Positions 817 through 57,635 of a stretch of 64,000 bases of DNA are shown here, piece after piece; position 1 is the stretch's first letter; every line of letters starts with the position of its first letter. The notes below the pieces were generated by a model. That model ran no database searches. It was not told the DNA's origin and saw only the letters and a list, made by a program, of their open reading frames with translations. This DNA comes from Candidatus Borrarchaeum weybense (lineage in GTDB: Archaea; Asgardarchaeota; Sifarchaeia; Borrarchaeales; Borrarchaeaceae), in assembly GCA_019057385.1 (NCBI GenBank), contig JAHQJS010000006.1, forward strand, positions 452,938-516,937, given 5' to 3'. Both the position numbers and the translations under genes were made by a program.

Positions 817-1461
817 ATGGGCGAAAATAAGATGCTCAAAACAATTGCTGAAAGTTTAGCTAATTTAAATGATGAACTTCTCAAAAATACATTAAGAAAA
901 GCGATGAAAGAGATTCTACTTAAAAAAATAATTCGAGAAGGCTTAGGAAAGGGAATGGAAATTGTTGGAACACGATATGAGAGCGGGGATTATTTTCTTA
1001 GTGAATTAATTATGGCAGCCACCCTTATGAATGAAAGCATGGAGTTACTACAACCTTTGCTGAAACATGAAGCAGCAGATAAAGATGCCATTGGGAAAAC
1101 CGTGATCGGCACTGTGGAGGGCGATTTACATGATATTGGAAAAAACCTCATTGGTGCTATGCTTGAGTCAATAGGATTTGAAATCACTGATCTTGGAGTA
1201 GACGTGACTCCAGAAAAGTTTGTCGAAACAGTAAGACAAGTAAAACCTGATATTCTCTGTATGTCCACACTTTTAAGTGCAACAATGGATAAAATCGAAG
1301 AAACTATTAAAAAACTAGAAGAAAATGGGTTGCGAGATACTGTCAAAGTTCTTGTCGGTGGTAGATGTCTAAATGATCAACTTGCTCGTGACATGGGTGC
1401 CGATTCTTATGGCGACGATGCGTGGGACGCCGTAAGAAAAGCACGAATGCTTCTCTCCTAA
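817..1461 (+). CDS. Corrinoid (B12-binding) methyltransferase protein, MtaC/MtbC-like
   Basis: GDLHDIGKN (DxHxxG) motif, N-terminal cap YFLSELIMAA, LVGG. Confidence 0.92.
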   Translation: MGENKMLKTIAESLANLNDELLKNTLRKAMKEILLKKIIREGLGKGMEIVGTRYESGDYFLSELIMAATLMNESMELLQPLLKHEAADKDAIGKTVIGTVEGDLHDIGKNLIGAMLESIGFEITDLGVDVTPEKFVETVRQVKPDILCMSTLLSATMDKIEETIKKLEENGLRDTVKVLVGGRCLNDQLARDMGADSYGDDAWDAVRKARMLLS

Positions 1462-1559
1462 TTAAGTCGTCACTATGCCGGAATTTTTATATTTCCACAT
1501 CTTTGTAGAGTATTAGCTGTGGTGATGACATTCCTAAAAAGAAAAAGATGGATAGTGGG

Positions 1560-2165
1560 TTAGACGACTTCCTTCTTTCGAAGTCGGATCAGGCTATATG
1601 AGACTAAGGCAGTCACTGAAACTAAGGGAATAAACAGTGTGCCGAGGCATCCAATTGAAACGGTTGATACTGCCATATAGGCGTCAGTCGAAACCAATCT
1701 ATCGGTTATAGTACCATCAGGAGATCTGGATTCAAAGAGGATGCCTGTGTTGGTGTCTCGATAGCTTCTACTAGATTCACTATAATAGGCAGTGTAGCTG
1801 ACACCCTCGAATTCGTAATTTTGAGTGGTAAGACTTAAATCTTCTTCTAAATAGCTTTTTGGTAGTAGCCACGGTGAAACATAGGCAAGGTTAAGTTCAG
1901 TAATACTTGCGTCGGCATCGAGTATTTCAGTTTCGGTGTTACCACTTACTGTTACTTCCAGCGATATCGTCTTGCCTTCTACGTTAATCACTTTCATTTT
2001 AATAGTTCCATAGCTATTTGACTGCCATTGTATTTCATTGCCTATTGATAATGTCCCCCAGTTTGGTGTGGCAGTTACCGTTGTTGTTGATGAGGTGCTG
2101 GCGATCAAACAGACCAAGCATACAACAAGAAGTCCCATTAGAGCCTTTCTGGATGTATTCCTCAT
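1560..2165 (-). CDS. Secreted/surface protein with signal peptide and C-terminal CLGT-TM-basic anchor
   Basis: ATG 2165 preceded by GGTGAG; hydrophobic N-terminus; C-terminus GCLGTLFIPLVSVTALVSYSLIRLRKK. Confidence 0.7.
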   Translation of the reverse strand: MRNTSRKALMGLLVVCLVCLIASTSSTTTVTATPNWGTLSIGNEIQWQSNSYGTIKMKVINVEGKTISLEVTVSGNTETEILDADASITELNLAYVSPWLLPKSYLEEDLSLTTQNYEFEGVSYTAYYSESSRSYRDTNTGILFESRSPDGTITDRLVSTDAYMAVSTVSIGCLGTLFIPLVSVTALVSYSLIRLRKKEVV

Positions 2166-2426
2166 AGACTCACCATATTTAGTGTTAAAATTCAAAAACT
2201 CGTGCAGTATATTAAGGGTCTTGGTTTATAAACGTTCATGGTCTTATGGAAGGTTTTTACAGTTTTAAGGGTCTGGTAGTCATATTCAGTAGAAAAAATA
2301 AATTATCAGGTAAAAATTACTAACTGTAATAGAATTTAAACTAGCAATATGCATGCCAGACCTACACGTTAGATAATTGTGGTGATGTATAGCTTCTGGA
2401 CGGCTTTAAAAAAATGCCCATACGCA

Positions 2427-48532: not shown

Positions 48533-49294
48533 TCATTTTGGTGGTCTTTCTCGCATGATAGCATATAATGAAGGCGGTTTAGGCGTACATTCAAGTTCTA
48601 CACGAATTGGATACGTTGAACCAACGGCATGACTTTTTTCAAGTCCATCCATGATTTCGTCAATTTTCTCTGTCGGAATGCCGAAAATAAGTTCGCTGTC
48701 CGCAGCCATGCCAAATCTTCTCGTTCCGTAGCAAGGAAACGCAATATTCACATCATTTCTAAGATAAGTATCAGCTATCCCTTCGGCACAGGTTCCGCCC
48801 TCTGCAGCAGTGGTAAATGACAGCCTTTCACCAGTTTTCCAGGTAGCGGCATGAATCAATCTTGTCATTTGGGCAGGATTGGCAAATAATAAAATTAGAT
48901 CTGGCTCAAGAGGTGTTTTCGCTAATGGTGCGGTAACAATAGCTTCGAAAGAGCCCGTTCCAATTTTTGGAATATTCCCTATAAGGTTAGATGAGGCTTC
49001 TATGTCTTCTACTCTAGCTCCAGCACGCCTTTCTCCAGATATCATATCTTCTGGCCAATCTGCGAATCCTAATACTGACTGCGCATAAGAACAGATTATT
49101 TCCTCCATTCCGCCAGCTATTACTCTTTCGTGAATTCGTGAAAGGGCAACCATTTGACAGACTGTAAGACGGATTTTCGGCCGTTCAACTTCTGCAGGGA
49201 TTTCATCCTTATTTTTCAATAATTTTACAGCAACTGGTGTTGTTCTCAATCTTAAAAGTCGGATTACTCGTTCCTGAATACCTTCACAATCCAT
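48533..49294 (-). CDS. DUF169-family protein
   Basis: PVAVK, CQMV..R, C..A..LG, PD, GTC, PCYGTR. Confidence 0.8.
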   Translation of the reverse strand: MDCEGIQERVIRLLRLRTTPVAVKLLKNKDEIPAEVERPKIRLTVCQMVALSRIHERVIAGGMEEIICSYAQSVLGFADWPEDMISGERRAGARVEDIEASSNLIGNIPKIGTGSFEAIVTAPLAKTPLEPDLILLFANPAQMTRLIHAATWKTGERLSFTTAAEGGTCAEGIADTYLRNDVNIAFPCYGTRRFGMAADSELIFGIPTEKIDEIMDGLEKSHAVGSTYPIRVELECTPKPPSLYAIMRERPPK

Positions 49295-49436
49295 ATTTTC
49301 ACCTCAATTAATGAGCAGATGTAGGTCTATAAAGAGAACTAATTGGGTGAAACACCTTCAAGAATAAAAATGTAATATATCAAAAAGTAGCAGTTAATAT
49401 CATCAAGATTTTATAAAAGGGGCGCATCCCCCTTCG

Positions 49437-49472
49437 TCACTTTCCTACAAGGTGTTTATAAGGAAAGATCAT
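49437..49472 (-). ncRNA. Eukaryote-like SECIS element (3' UTR of HesB-like selenoprotein gene)
   Basis: ATGA-TCTTTCCTTAT-AAA-CACCTTGT-AGGAAAG-TGA; stem CTTTCCT/AGGAAAG. Confidence 0.85.
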
Positions 49473-49508
49473 TCGTTTTTAATCATTTAAATCAGAAATG
49501 GCTTTAGT

Positions 49509-49844
49509 CTATTTTTGGATGTATAATTGTTTCGTCAAACCGCGGACATCGACTATAACCTTTTCAGGAAGGAATGCCTGCACTTTAGGATCCATATAGA
49601 TGGAAAGTTTGCTGACTTTTCCAATAAGAGAAAGTCGATTATTTGTTTTTGTATCCTTTTCTGGAACAAGGGCAACTTCTGGGGTGGCTGTACAGGTTTT
49701 AGATCACTTTCCCGAGACATTGAGCCAGAATACCAATGCAAGGTTACCGCTTTTCCGCAGTTTGTCTGAGAGCCATTTTCTAGCCTTCTGAGACAGACTT
49801 ATCTTTAAGGAAACCACCTCTTCTTTTTTACGTTTCAGTTTCAT
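49509..49844 (-). CDS. HesB-like / CC-Se-motif-like selenoprotein (Sec codon 47 at 49704-49706)
   Basis: 111-aa frame with one internal TGA: KISLSQKARKWL..VSGK-U-SKTCTATPEV..SIYMDPKV; downstream SECIS; tRNA-Sec in window. Confidence 0.75.
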
Positions 49845-49983
49845 AATCGTCCTTAACTTAAATGCTGCTTATTCTAACTATATAAATATTGACGACACGT
49901 GCAAATCACTAAAAATTTGAACTTAGTTGTTAGTGAACCACCCTTTTATTATTGAATTGAGTTTAAAAGATTAGGGATTTGTC

Positions 49984-54453: not shown

Positions 54454-54506
54454 GCGCAAAAGTTGTCATAACAAGAAAGAAGGTAAAAGGGGGCGGCCCT
54501 TTTTTT

Positions 54507-54543
54507 TCAGCTATACTACCCATGCGTTTCAGTATAGCCTCAT
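54507..54543 (-). ncRNA. Eukaryote-like SECIS element overlapping the stop codon of the PDO selenoprotein gene
   Basis: ATGA-GGCTATACTG-AAA-CGCATGGG-TAGTATAGC-TGA; 9-bp stem GCTATACTG/TAGTATAGC. Confidence 0.88.
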
Positions 54544-55220
54544 TCTTTACCTTCTGATAACAGTTTATTCACGAATTTGTCTAAGTTTGGTACGCCCACA
54601 AATGTCCTTTCTTCATTAATGACTGTAGCAGGGACACCGGACACGCCGTATTTTCTAGCGAGATCTTGATGTTCGTAGGCTTCGATTGTATCGGAGATGA
54701 CTTTTCCTTCGGACTCTATGGATATCTGGTTTGCTAGTAGTACAGAAGCTGGACAGAATGGTCAATCCCCCACAAGTGAGGAATAATCTTCTTCACATGT
54801 TGTAGGTGTGACCACTGTCCGAACTACCACTGGTTTCTGGATCTCTATCAGTTTTTCTTTTAAATGTCCTAAATCTGTGGTTTGAGTTGAAACCATTACA
54901 AGTGTTTGAATAAATGCCGCAAATTCTCCTCCGGCGGGTATGCCTGTGTATCGTATTCCAGTCAATTCTCCTCCTGATTCTATACGAATAGTGGGAGGGT
55001 ATTCAACTTCGTATTTTGCTGCTAACTCCTTTTGAGTGTCGAGCGAGATCTCTTCAACTGTAATTTTGTCAGTAAGTTCAGTGAGTGTCTTACAGATTTC
55101 AATGGTATCGGCACATGCTGGGCAGTGGATATCTGATGTGAAAACCTTTAGCGAAATAGGGTTTTCTAGTTTCTCTAATTCCCGTCTGAGTTGAGACCTT
55201 CCAGAAGGTGAGATCAACAA
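54540..55220 (-). CDS. Protein-disulfide oxidoreductase (double thioredoxin fold) selenoprotein with CPAC and UPFC active sites
   Basis: Frame continues 73 aa past TGA 54762-54764 (PFCPASVLLANQISIES..GVPATVIN..FVGVP), colinear with paralog 57003-57635 in which CPHC aligns to UPFC; SECIS downstream. Confidence 0.88.
54766..54801 (-). other. 36-nt in-frame insert, candidate BHB/BHL mRNA intron
   Basis: Absent from the paralog; flanked by GTGGTCA/TGACCAT helix, 3-nt bulges ACA and GAT, internal hairpin; removal gives VTPT-U-PFC. Confidence 0.5.
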
Positions 55221-55254: not shown

Positions 55255-56615
55255 CAAGAAGACCCCCAACTTGTTGGGGGGATGAATTGAGTATTTTACG
55301 TTTTTCACTTTCACAGTAGTGTCCCCCAGCTTTAAATAGGTTTTTGCGTATAGTAACTCTCGTGATATGAATTTTCAGGGGAACACAGGGATACGTATGA
55401 TGACACGGACGTACAAATATCGCTTGTATCCAACCACACAACAGGCAACTACGTTAACGCAATGGCTGACCACCTGTCGTTGGTTGTACAATACCTCGCT
55501 TGCTGAACGCCGAGATGCTTGGCATACTCACCAACACTCAGTCAGCTATTATGAGCAAGCCACCCAACTACAAGTCGTAAAAAAGACTAATCCGTTTTTG
55601 AAGGCGGTGCATTCTCAGGTGCTCCAAGATACACTTAGAAGACTGGATAAGACCTTCCAGAACTTTTTTAGGCGTCTTAAGAAGGGGGAAAAACCAGGTT
55701 ACCCACGCTTTAAAGGGCAATACCGATATGATTCCTTCACTTACCCGCAAAGTGGGTTCTCACTGGAAAAGAACAACAAGAAACTCCGGCTCTCGAAAAT
55801 TGGACGTATCACCATTACACTCCACCGTCCGATACCTACTGAAGGCGTGATCAAGACCTGTACCATTACACGCGATGTCGACCACTGGCATGCCTGTTTT
55901 GTAGTAGAACTGCCTGATCCCGCTCTTCACACTCAGAAAAGAGCCATAAAGAAGGCGATAGGGGTGGATGTCGGGCTTAAGAGTTTACTGACGTGTAATA
56001 ACGGAGATACCATCGCTAACCCCCGTTGGTTAAGACACTCGGAGAAGAAAGTAGCCAAAGAACAGAGAAGAAAAGATAGAAAGGTTAAGGGCTCAAATAA
56101 CCGTCACAAGCAGAACAGGAAGGTAGCACGGTTACACCGGAAGATACGTAACCAACGGAAGGACTTTCATCACAAGCTTAGTCGAACACTGGTCGATACT
56201 TATGACCTAATAGTGTATGAAAACTTAACGATTACCAACATGGTGAAGAACCATCATGTAGCCAAGTCGATTAGTGATGCGGGCTGGGGACAACTGATGT
56301 GTTTTACCGAGTACAAAGCGGAGGAAGCTGGTACTCTGGTAGAATATGTGAGTGCCTATAATACCACACAATTGTGTAGTAGGTGTGGGAGGATTGTGCC
56401 GAAAACACTGGCAACCCGCATCCACCGCTGTCCTTACTGTGGTCTTGATGTAGCACGAGATCATAACTCGGCCATCACGATTTTACACCGATCACGCAAC
56501 TATGTAGCATCACGATCATCATCAGGGCAGGAACTGCCCGTAGAGCCTGTTTGACATGTCCCGTTGGGGAATGGATGATTCAGGAAGCCAGCCTACTTGT
56601 AGGGTGGTAGTTCAC
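55255..56615 (+). mobile_element. IS200/IS605-family element carrying tnpB only (IS1341-like)
   Basis: Left end CAAGAAGACCCCCAACTTGTTGGGGGGATGAATTG; right end CAGGAAGCC..GGTAGTTCAC; no tnpA; exact left boundary uncertain by a few nt. Confidence 0.9.
55397..56554 (+). CDS. tnpB: RNA-guided endonuclease TnpB
   Basis: TYKYRLYP HTH, GYPRFK, RuvC D (GVDVG), E (YENL), Zn finger CSRC/CPYC, D (RDHNSA) all intact. Confidence 0.95.
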   Translation: MMTRTYKYRLYPTTQQATTLTQWLTTCRWLYNTSLAERRDAWHTHQHSVSYYEQATQLQVVKKTNPFLKAVHSQVLQDTLRRLDKTFQNFFRRLKKGEKPGYPRFKGQYRYDSFTYPQSGFSLEKNNKKLRLSKIGRITITLHRPIPTEGVIKTCTITRDVDHWHACFVVELPDPALHTQKRAIKKAIGVDVGLKSLLTCNNGDTIANPRWLRHSEKKVAKEQRRKDRKVKGSNNRHKQNRKVARLHRKIRNQRKDFHHKLSRTLVDTYDLIVYENLTITNMVKNHHVAKSISDAGWGQLMCFTEYKAEEAGTLVEYVSAYNTTQLCSRCGRIVPKTLATRIHRCPYCGLDVARDHNSAITILHRSRNYVASRSSSGQELPVEPV

Positions 56616-56905: not shown

Positions 56906-57002
56906 TTCTACCTAAACCGGAGATAACGAGAAAGTCCAAATTGTCCTAAAATTGGCTTTGAGACCATCTTTTGTCTATATCTTCTATTCTTTTAGTGTAA
57001 TC

Positions 57003-57635
57003 TCATTTTCTACCTACCGTAATCAATTTATCGACGAATTTTCCAACGTTTGGAACGCCCACGAATTCTTTCTGTCCATTTATGATCGTTGCAGGTACTC
57101 CAGTCACTTCGTATTTCATAGGTATTTCCTGATTTTGATATCCCTCTACTATATCTGAAATAACTACGCCATCGGATTCAATTGATATTTGGTTTGCCAT
57201 TAGAACTGATATTGGGCAGTGTGGACAACGTGATGTGACGATGGTTTTGACAACTATAGGTTTCTTAATCTCCTTTATTTTTGCCTTTAAATGGGCCAAT
57301 TCCGTTTGTCCGGTTGAAATCATTACGAGTGTTCTAATAAATGGAGCGAATTCGCCACCAGCCGGAATACCAGTATAGCGTACCCCACATCCTTCAATAA
57401 TAATTGTAGGCAACCATTTAACCTTGTATTTTGCTACTAACTCCTTCTGAGTGTCGAAAGATATCTCTTCATATGAGATTTTTCCATTTGAAAGTTCAGT
57501 GAGGATCTTACAGAGTTTAACAGTATCCGCAGCTGTGGGGCAGTTATTTTTTGATGTGAAAACTTTTAAAGAAATTGGTTTTTCGAGGTTATCAAATTCC
57601 TGTTTCACTATCTCTTTAACTGAATCAGACATCAT
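57003..57635 (-). CDS. Protein-disulfide oxidoreductase, Cys paralog (CPTA / CPHC)
   Basis: RYTGIPAGGEF, VTSRCPHC, GVPATIING. Confidence 0.9.
   Translation of the reverse strand: MMSDSVKEIVKQEFDNLEKPISLKVFTSKNNCPTAADTVKLCKILTELSNGKISYEEISFDTQKELVAKYKVKWLPTIIIEGCGVRYTGIPAGGEFAPFIRTLVMISTGQTELAHLKAKIKEIKKPIVVKTIVTSRCPHCPISVLMANQISIESDGVVISDIVEGYQNQEIPMKYEVTGVPATIINGQKEFVGVPNVGKFVDKLITVGRK

Follow-up and report, generated by a model that had tools for sequence, protein, structure and literature searches.

The window, that is, the whole 64,000-nt stretch of DNA that was analysed, corresponds to C6:452938-516937 of a 4.18-Mb genome (8 contigs, 37% GC) of a Borrarchaeum-type Asgard archaeon. The part of it considered here carries the following features, given in the order of their coordinates.

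48533..49294, minus strand: DUF169 (COG2043) gene (Pfam PF02596, E 2e-57), downstream of the selenoprotein gene and on the same strand.
49415..49432, minus strand: G/C hairpin GGGGG-AUGCG-CCCC with a U run, 4 nt past the SECIS element.
49437..49472, minus strand: predicted SECIS element, Asgard type I ('lokiSECIS'), assigned from the sequence, from covariation among homologs and from a covariance-model match.
49509..49844, minus strand: predicted selenoprotein coding sequence, 111 codons and a TAG stop.
49692..49694, minus strand: codon for Cys51 (U-x-x-x-C), the candidate partner of Sec47, kept in three group-1 orthologs.
49704..49706, minus strand: in-frame TGA, codon 47, predicted to be read as Sec.
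49879..49886, minus strand: TTTATATA, a putative TATA-like box read from the sequence, some 38 nt ahead of the ATG.

The frame 49844..49509 has a single internal TGA, found in the residue context V-S-G-K-U-S-K-T-C, and Cys51 is the sole other chalcogen residue of the 111-residue product. A Shine-Dalgarno-like AAGGA can be read 6-10 nt ahead of the ATG, and an alternative GTG start (49817-49815, minus strand) serves those orthologs that do not have the ATG; residues 1-11 of the target are unconserved and have pLDDT <50 in the AlphaFold2 model. Upstream of the gene lies a divergent WD40 gene, and downstream, behind the hairpin and the U run, the DUF169 gene has its own GAGGTG before its ATG. An earlier note, made from the letters of the window, had described a 111-codon minus-strand frame with one internal TGA, missed by the list of open reading frames, situated upstream of a same-strand DUF169 gene and followed 36 nt past its TAG by an ATGA element with a paired stem. 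This description was borne out in full, down to the element itself, which reads ATGA (49472-49469), N11, AAA and a stem paired onto T-GA (49439-49437).

Standard ORF calling yields the first 46 codons of the frame only, and the following alternatives were considered: codon 47 could be read as selenocysteine; the locus could be a pseudogene, where an IscA-like gene has acquired a nonsense mutation and the hairpin merely terminates the transcript, a reading to which the 46-codon fragment returned by gene callers lends some support; or UGA47 could be read without selenium, by near-cognate insertion of Trp or Cys or under a reassigned code, or else the two halves of the frame could be two separate small peptides.

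The same genome has a paralog at C4:174546-174875, with 50% identity to the target, and the closest named relative, Candidatus Borrarchaeum yapensis, has orthologs of both copies. In these four sequences (the target, the paralog and the two B. yapensis orthologs) the TGA column is identical in 4/4, and 23 columns past the TGA are invariant. Further family members, all of them with the TGA, were found on metagenome contigs. A profile search detected the family in 14 of the 400 genomes of the phylum, from five GTDB families, and nearly all members have one TGA in the same alignment column, which across these five families makes about 20 homologs that share it. The codon changes past the TGA (64 codons) between the target and two orthologs are mostly synonymous, 11 synonymous and 2 non-synonymous in one comparison, 13 and 3 in the other; thus, the frame past the TGA is under purifying selection. 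The earlier note had considered that homologs might end at the TGA; coding conservation instead runs past it. The shared TGA column and the selection past it argue against the pseudogene, and since the first start codon in the conserved segment past the TGA is that of Met84, the two halves are hardly two separate peptides.

In the public databases, members of the family are represented by N-terminal fragments ending at the TGA, by C-terminal fragments past the TGA or by full-length proteins with W, with few others. The calls with W at the equivalent of codon 47 (P0002, P0011) are what speaks for a reading without selenium; they come from a code-4 style translation, where TGA is Trp. A search with a single sequence for close homologs returned one near-identical match only, and the profile search with all representatives returned TGA-split fragments and one full-length distant member only. 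Three fragments of the Asgard family have a precomputed Pfam tag, PF28096; a literature search on PF28096 found nothing, and a search on NF041239, a family considered below, found one review.

Two homologs do not have the TGA. At L070:1477-1818 a Cys occupies exactly the Sec column, and at L074:1501-1863 a Cys lies one column from it; neither gene has a TGA or a SECIS element. The earlier note had proposed to look for homologs with Cys at codon 47, and the first of these is such a case in the exact column, the second one column off. SECIS elements that stand only behind the Sec forms, together with the Sec/Cys pairing, are what classically marks a true selenoprotein family, and the Cys homologs without SECIS also count against the pseudogene.

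The exact-column Cys homolog belongs to a set of three tandem paralogs at L070 (G175:C334) 935-2311 (minus strand), in the order Sec-Cys-Sec: a Sec form with UxxxxC and a SECIS element at 1889-1930, the Cys form, and a second Sec form at 989-1396 with a SECIS element at 935-977. The locus thus offers a natural set for comparing Sec and Cys forms side by side.

The putative SECIS element of the window begins 36 nt past the TAG stop and 232 nt past the UGA. On the minus strand it is composed of AUGA (49472-49469), an unpaired U in the N position (49468), the 5' stem (49467-49460), the loop (49459-49448), the 3' stem (49447-49440), a U (49439) and GA (49438-49437). The 8-nt arms are CUUUCCUU on the 5' side and the complementary UAGGAAAG on the 3' side. 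The stem, CTTTCCTT / TAGGAAAG, forms 7/8 pairs in the window copy, with one U-U mismatch at its top, and 8/8 in the orthologs; for the family as a whole it comprises 8 Watson-Crick or GU pairs and an N-N pair. The A-rich loop, AUAAACACCUUG, is 12 nt long in the window copy vs 11 nt in most homologs. Among the homologs the 5' core is AUGA or GUGA, with one ACGA, and some of the genes end in a TGA that is at the same time the UGA of the AUGA core.

The two sides of the stem change together. In a gap-free alignment of 10 homologous elements from four GTDB families, the window being excluded, standard pairs occupy 100% of the stem cells, and double-sided changes are found in 8/8 pairs. None of 500 shuffles matched this covariation, and sliding the 3' partner by 1-3 columns left 54-61% of the cells paired. 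Thus, the element, whose absence from orthologous UTRs the earlier note had named as a counter-indication, is present there with compensatory changes, and in the paralogous UTRs as well; its covariation is a further argument against the pseudogene.

A covariance model (R1), constructed from the 3'UTR elements of the homologs only, again with the window excluded, matches the 64 kb of the window significantly at one place only, 49433-49475 (minus strand; 39.5 bits, E 4e-7). The same model gives no score to the SECIS elements of the peroxiredoxin (Prx), VhuD or AhpF-N-like genes of the same genome, and one MAFFT alignment of SECIS elements across different protein families was unusable. A loose SECIS descriptor has 84 matches in the genome vs 52 in the reversed genome and hence is unspecific, so the weight is placed on the conjunction of the element with a conserved TGA-containing frame. 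A scan of the window with Rfam at the gathering threshold returned no match; thus, no Rfam SECIS model covers the element at 49437..49472.

The SECIS elements described in Lokiarchaeota (PMC4989117) and the type I eSECIS-like elements of Asgard archaea (PMC11227280) have AUGA ahead of a stem of some 9 bp, then a loop, about 11 nt long, which opens A-rich and closes with G, and GA (or AA) behind the stem; they lie just past the stop. The target element is like those of the published genes (Mariotti 2016, PMC4989117; Huang 2024, PMC11227280) in core, stem, loop, GA and position, the difference being in the protein family, which is outside the seven published Asgard families.

Two elements of the family depart from this layout. 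At L065:1870-1911 (plus strand; G274) the core is ACGA in place of AUGA or GUGA, with an unaltered stem, loop and GA; this variant is not mentioned in the two papers on Asgard SECIS elements (PMC4989117, PMC11227280). At L067:1693-1790 (plus strand; G127) the 3'UTR does not have the AUGA/GA core. Here a UAAAAAC... loop is closed by a stem of 10 bp that lies within an outer stem, and GAAA stands on the 5' side; the arrangement recalls the GAA_A type of methanogens.

Behind the SECIS element a second structure is conserved. We compared the window with the equivalent position in L002, L026-L034 and L060-L070, and in every Sec-encoding member of the family a G/C hairpin was observed 4-8 nt past the SECIS element; its stem covaries, its [U/A]GC[G/A] loop is kept, and a U run comes next. 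Like hairpins stand behind the SECIS elements of the Prx, VhuD and AhpF-N-like genes of the same genome. Genome-wide there are 351 hairpins of such kind, only 3 of them directly behind a match to the SECIS descriptor. A scan for bacterial-type terminators did not call the hairpin at 49415..49432. The hairpin and its U run probably mark the end of the transcript, and the hairpin is possibly an accessory part of the recoding signal.

Of the machinery needed to read UGA47 as Sec, three components were found in the genome, all above their cut-offs: SepSecS, at 410 bits, SelD, which carries an in-frame TGA of its own, and a factor like SelB/EFSec, at 286 bits. A tRNA-Sec was not located in the assembly, matches to Rfam RF01852 being below the threshold and ARAGORN with default settings giving none; six candidates obtained with ARAGORN at low stringency all failed Rfam (6/6). 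Only 32 tRNAs were called in this assembly in total. The missing tRNA-Sec is the second point in favour of the pseudogene. TGA-containing genes with the same SECIS architecture are found elsewhere in the genome, namely, those of a peroxiredoxin, several VhuD/MvhD proteins and an AhpF-N-terminal-like protein. TGA is an ordinary stop elsewhere in the genome as well; the VhuD and AhpF-N-like genes, among others, terminate with it. This, along with the dedicated SECIS element and the Sec machinery, argues against a reading of UGA47 without selenium. SBP2 was not found in Asgard archaea (PMC4989117).

One of these genes lies in the window itself: a second selenoprotein gene, AhpF-N-terminal-like, with a thioredoxin fold and a U-P-F-C motif, is located at 54516-55220 (minus strand). 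In its SECIS element, at 54503-54545 (minus strand), the UGA within AUGA doubles as the stop codon of the gene. At 56946-57635 (minus strand) there is a Cys paralog, with C-P-H-C. The family has already been published for Sifarchaeia/Borrarchaeales.

Taking the evidence together, we assign a probability of about 0.88 to the interpretation that 49509-49844 (minus strand) is a genuine, unannotated selenoprotein gene, with UGA47 as Sec, a SECIS element in the 3'UTR and a product of the IscA/HesB fold. A reading of UGA47 without selenium, or as the border of two peptides, is very improbable, and the pseudogene slightly more so. In the favoured interpretation, UGA47 would be decoded by Sec-tRNA delivered by EFSec and directed by the type I SECIS element in the 3'UTR, Sec would be supplied by the SepSecS / SelD / EFSec pathway of the organism, and the transcript would end at the hairpin and U run at 49415..49432.

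The fold was assigned from an AlphaFold2 model (pLDDT 79, pTM 0.69), for which 11 aligned sequences served as the input. The best 12 Foldseek matches are, without exception (12/12), structures of IscA, SufA, DsrR or 'putative Fe-S biosynthesis' proteins, all of the IscA/SufA/HesB fold, and so are the best 10 matches of VIA-align, which places the model on E. coli IscA with Z 8.2 and rmsd 3.4 A over 89 residues, the first unrelated fold having Z 3.7. The 111-residue product is thus predicted to have the IscA/HesB alpha-beta fold, and, considering the coding evidence above, the gene very probably encodes a selenocysteine protein of this type.

At the level of sequence the relationship is distant. 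The target scores 16.9 bits (E 0.0077) against PF01521 (Fe-S_biosyn), whose gathering threshold is 26.3 bits; in four close members all matches to this family are weak (best E 0.0012), and weak full-length matches occur in three divergent subgroups. Against NF041239, the CC/Se motif family, the target has 15 bits vs the cut-off of 40, and 12 of the 21 members match, at 13-25 bits (best 25.4). TIGR01911, with a cut-off of 66.35 bits, has no match at E <= 10 in the four close members and scores 14.9 bits in one distant member. In the reverse direction, no protein over the TIGR01911 cut-off was found in five Asgard genomes, a search of genomes with NF041239 yielded nothing over the cut-off, and PF01521 detected no canonical member, either in this genome or in five further Asgard genomes with the family. 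Sequence searches of the PDB with the profiles A1 and A6 produced noise only. The earlier note had likened the protein to the HesB/CC-Se-like selenoproteins. The part of this proposal that concerns fold and remote similarity holds, with weak matches to PF01521 or NF041239 in most members and only IscA/SufA/HesB structures among the structural matches; formal membership does not, as no family cut-off is reached.

An hhalign comparison of the family with E. coli IscA/SufA/ErpA has a probability of 10% and puts the Sec column onto Cys35 of IscA. In this register the helix start, the segment S-U-S-G on G-C35-S-G and the G-x-x-I-Y-I-D strand are all consistent; hence Sec47 would most probably be situated in the beta2-beta3 loop of the model, at the place of the first cluster-ligand Cys (Cys35) of A-type carriers. 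With scores below the cut-offs and an hhalign probability of 10%, the Cys35 equivalence and the function rest on fold and register, not on significant homology. The three cysteines of IscA (Cys35 ... Cys99-Gly-Cys101) are not reproduced as a set: C-G-C is absent, and the protein ends at residue 111.

Comparison with the named families gives the same picture. With the A-type carriers IscA/SufA/ErpA (PF01521) the target shares the fold, the N-terminal 'hydrophobic-x-L-T/S-x-x-A' helix start, a chalcogen in the beta2-beta3 loop and the register of the 'G-hydrophobic-x-I-Y-hydrophobic-D' strand; it differs in having Sec for the first Cys, in the absence of the C-terminal C-G-C ligands and in its sub-threshold PF01521 score. 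The HesB-like selenoprotein of Methanococcus (TIGR01911), which was labelled with 75Se in M. maripaludis (PMC11097638, PMC13188914), is likewise a small archaeal protein of about 100 residues with a single Sec and a distant relation to IscA, but it has the motif UxGP and a methanogen GAA_A SECIS element, whereas the target has U-S-K-T-C and a eukaryote-like AUGA/GA element. The CC/Se family NF041239, a predicted bacterial family first noted in Moorella thermoacetica, has the motif CxxU (PMC13188914). It is the best-scoring named family, with weak full-length alignments, and also consists of small selenoproteins; in contrast to its CxxU and bacterial SECIS context, the sequence of the target is S-G-K-U, and position -3 is not a Cys. 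As the target is below the thresholds of PF01521, TIGR01911 and NF041239 and does not have their listed motifs, we consider it a representative of an IscA-fold selenoprotein family distinct from all three.

What the protein does is a matter of graded preference. If Sec47 and Cys51 together hold a ligand, the protein would be a small carrier for an Fe-S cluster or for a metal, sulfur or selenium species, which it would bind through these two residues and then hand on, probably as a dimer, like A-type carriers. Vice versa, if Sec47 attacks a substrate and Cys51 resolves the resulting selenenylsulfide, the same selenoprotein would act as a selenol/thiol oxidoreductase, with no Fe-S cluster or metal involved, and in other subgroups the resolving Cys would be at +1, +5 or at the C-terminus.

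The position of the second Cys bears on this choice. It forms UxxxC in the group of the target, UxxxxC in one large GTDB family, UC in one genome and a C-terminal G-x-C in the paralog group and three other lineages. The spacing in the target, which the earlier note had called atypical, is indeed so, the partner Cys being placed differently in each subgroup. Such wandering is typical of a resolving Cys and unusual for metal ligands, and it favours the oxidoreductase, as do the missing C-G-C motif of A-type carriers and the fact that prokaryotic selenoproteins are mostly redox proteins (PMC13188914). On the other hand, the fold is that of Fe-S carriers and not of thioredoxin, Sec is in the column that hhalign puts on the ligand Cys35 of IscA, and no conserved oxidoreductase partner is encoded nearby. 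We prefer the carrier, with a likelihood somewhat short of even, and regard the oxidoreductase as nearly as likely.

The gene neighbourhood has no partner common to the lineages and lends no support to any particular function; DUF169 is adjacent in Borrarchaeum only. In the two other Borrarchaeum-type loci, L026 and L028, open frames of 253 and 286 codons at the position of the DUF169 gene were likened to it by length and place.

In one GTDB family only (L060, L064, L065, L070) a gene for a P-type cation ATPase (Cation_ATPase_N and E1-E2_ATPase) adjoins the selenoprotein gene. For L060 and L064 the ATPase was identified by a Pfam scan (opposite strand) and for L070 by reading the N-terminus; for L065 it was assumed from an ORF of the same size in the same position. 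This adjacency may be inherited synteny or may point to a functional link to metal handling.

Returning to the carrier, we also considered a more far-reaching form of it, where the Sec-containing IscA-fold family would take the place of A-type Fe-S carriers in Asgard archaea, with Sec as a ligand of a cluster or metal, and where the SECIS element would be bipartite, the conserved second hairpin with its [U/A]GC[G/A] loop serving as an accessory site for protein binding and not just as a terminator. The setting of this suggestion is the lack of a canonical IscA/HesB gene in the lineages concerned, as judged from six genomes, where none was detected; we regard it as speculative and rather unlikely.

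Asgard archaea are the closest known relatives of eukaryotes. To our knowledge, their selenoprotein genes have the sole prokaryotic SECIS elements of eukaryotic look. Such elements have been known since 2016 (PMC4989117). Seven selenoprotein families of Asgard archaea are named in a survey of 2024 and a review of 2026, namely, SelD, FrhA/VhuU, HdrA, FrhD/VhuD, PrxL, AhpF-N-like and DsbA-like (PMC11227280, PMC13188914). The target family is missing from these published catalogues, and the words 'HesB' and 'IscA' are absent from those parts of the text and supplements of the 2024 survey that were available (PMC11227280). The new addition is an Asgard selenoprotein family of the IscA rather than the thioredoxin fold, with clear Sec/Cys pairs. 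It would connect Asgard archaea with the HesB-like selenoproteins known in methanogens and in bacteria, and it provides about 20 more natural variants of the SECIS element for modelling, one with an ACGA core among them. Annotation pipelines still cut such genes into two 'hypothetical' fragments.

Two further observations were made in the vicinity of the family or in the same genome. ORFs similar to IS605 OrfB/TnpB are located near both paralogs, at 55367-56602 (plus strand) in the window and at L002:3-1127 (minus strand), the former with two in-frame TGA near its end.

On contig C5 of the same genome (G000), at about 171400-171580 (plus strand; L085:800-980; L095), there is an ORF of about 41 codons that begins with a conserved GTG and has the sequence ..ILSKE-x-ESCS-x-x-G-TGA-G-x-SPWTW ahead of a hydrophobic tail. 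An element with AUGA, an 8-bp stem, an A-rich loop and GA lies about 40 nt past its stop, along with a GC hairpin whose loop is UGCA. Four Borrarchaeum genomes keep the SECIS element, the frame and its TGA, the changes being mostly conservative, and this ORF is a candidate for a tail-anchored mini-selenoprotein.
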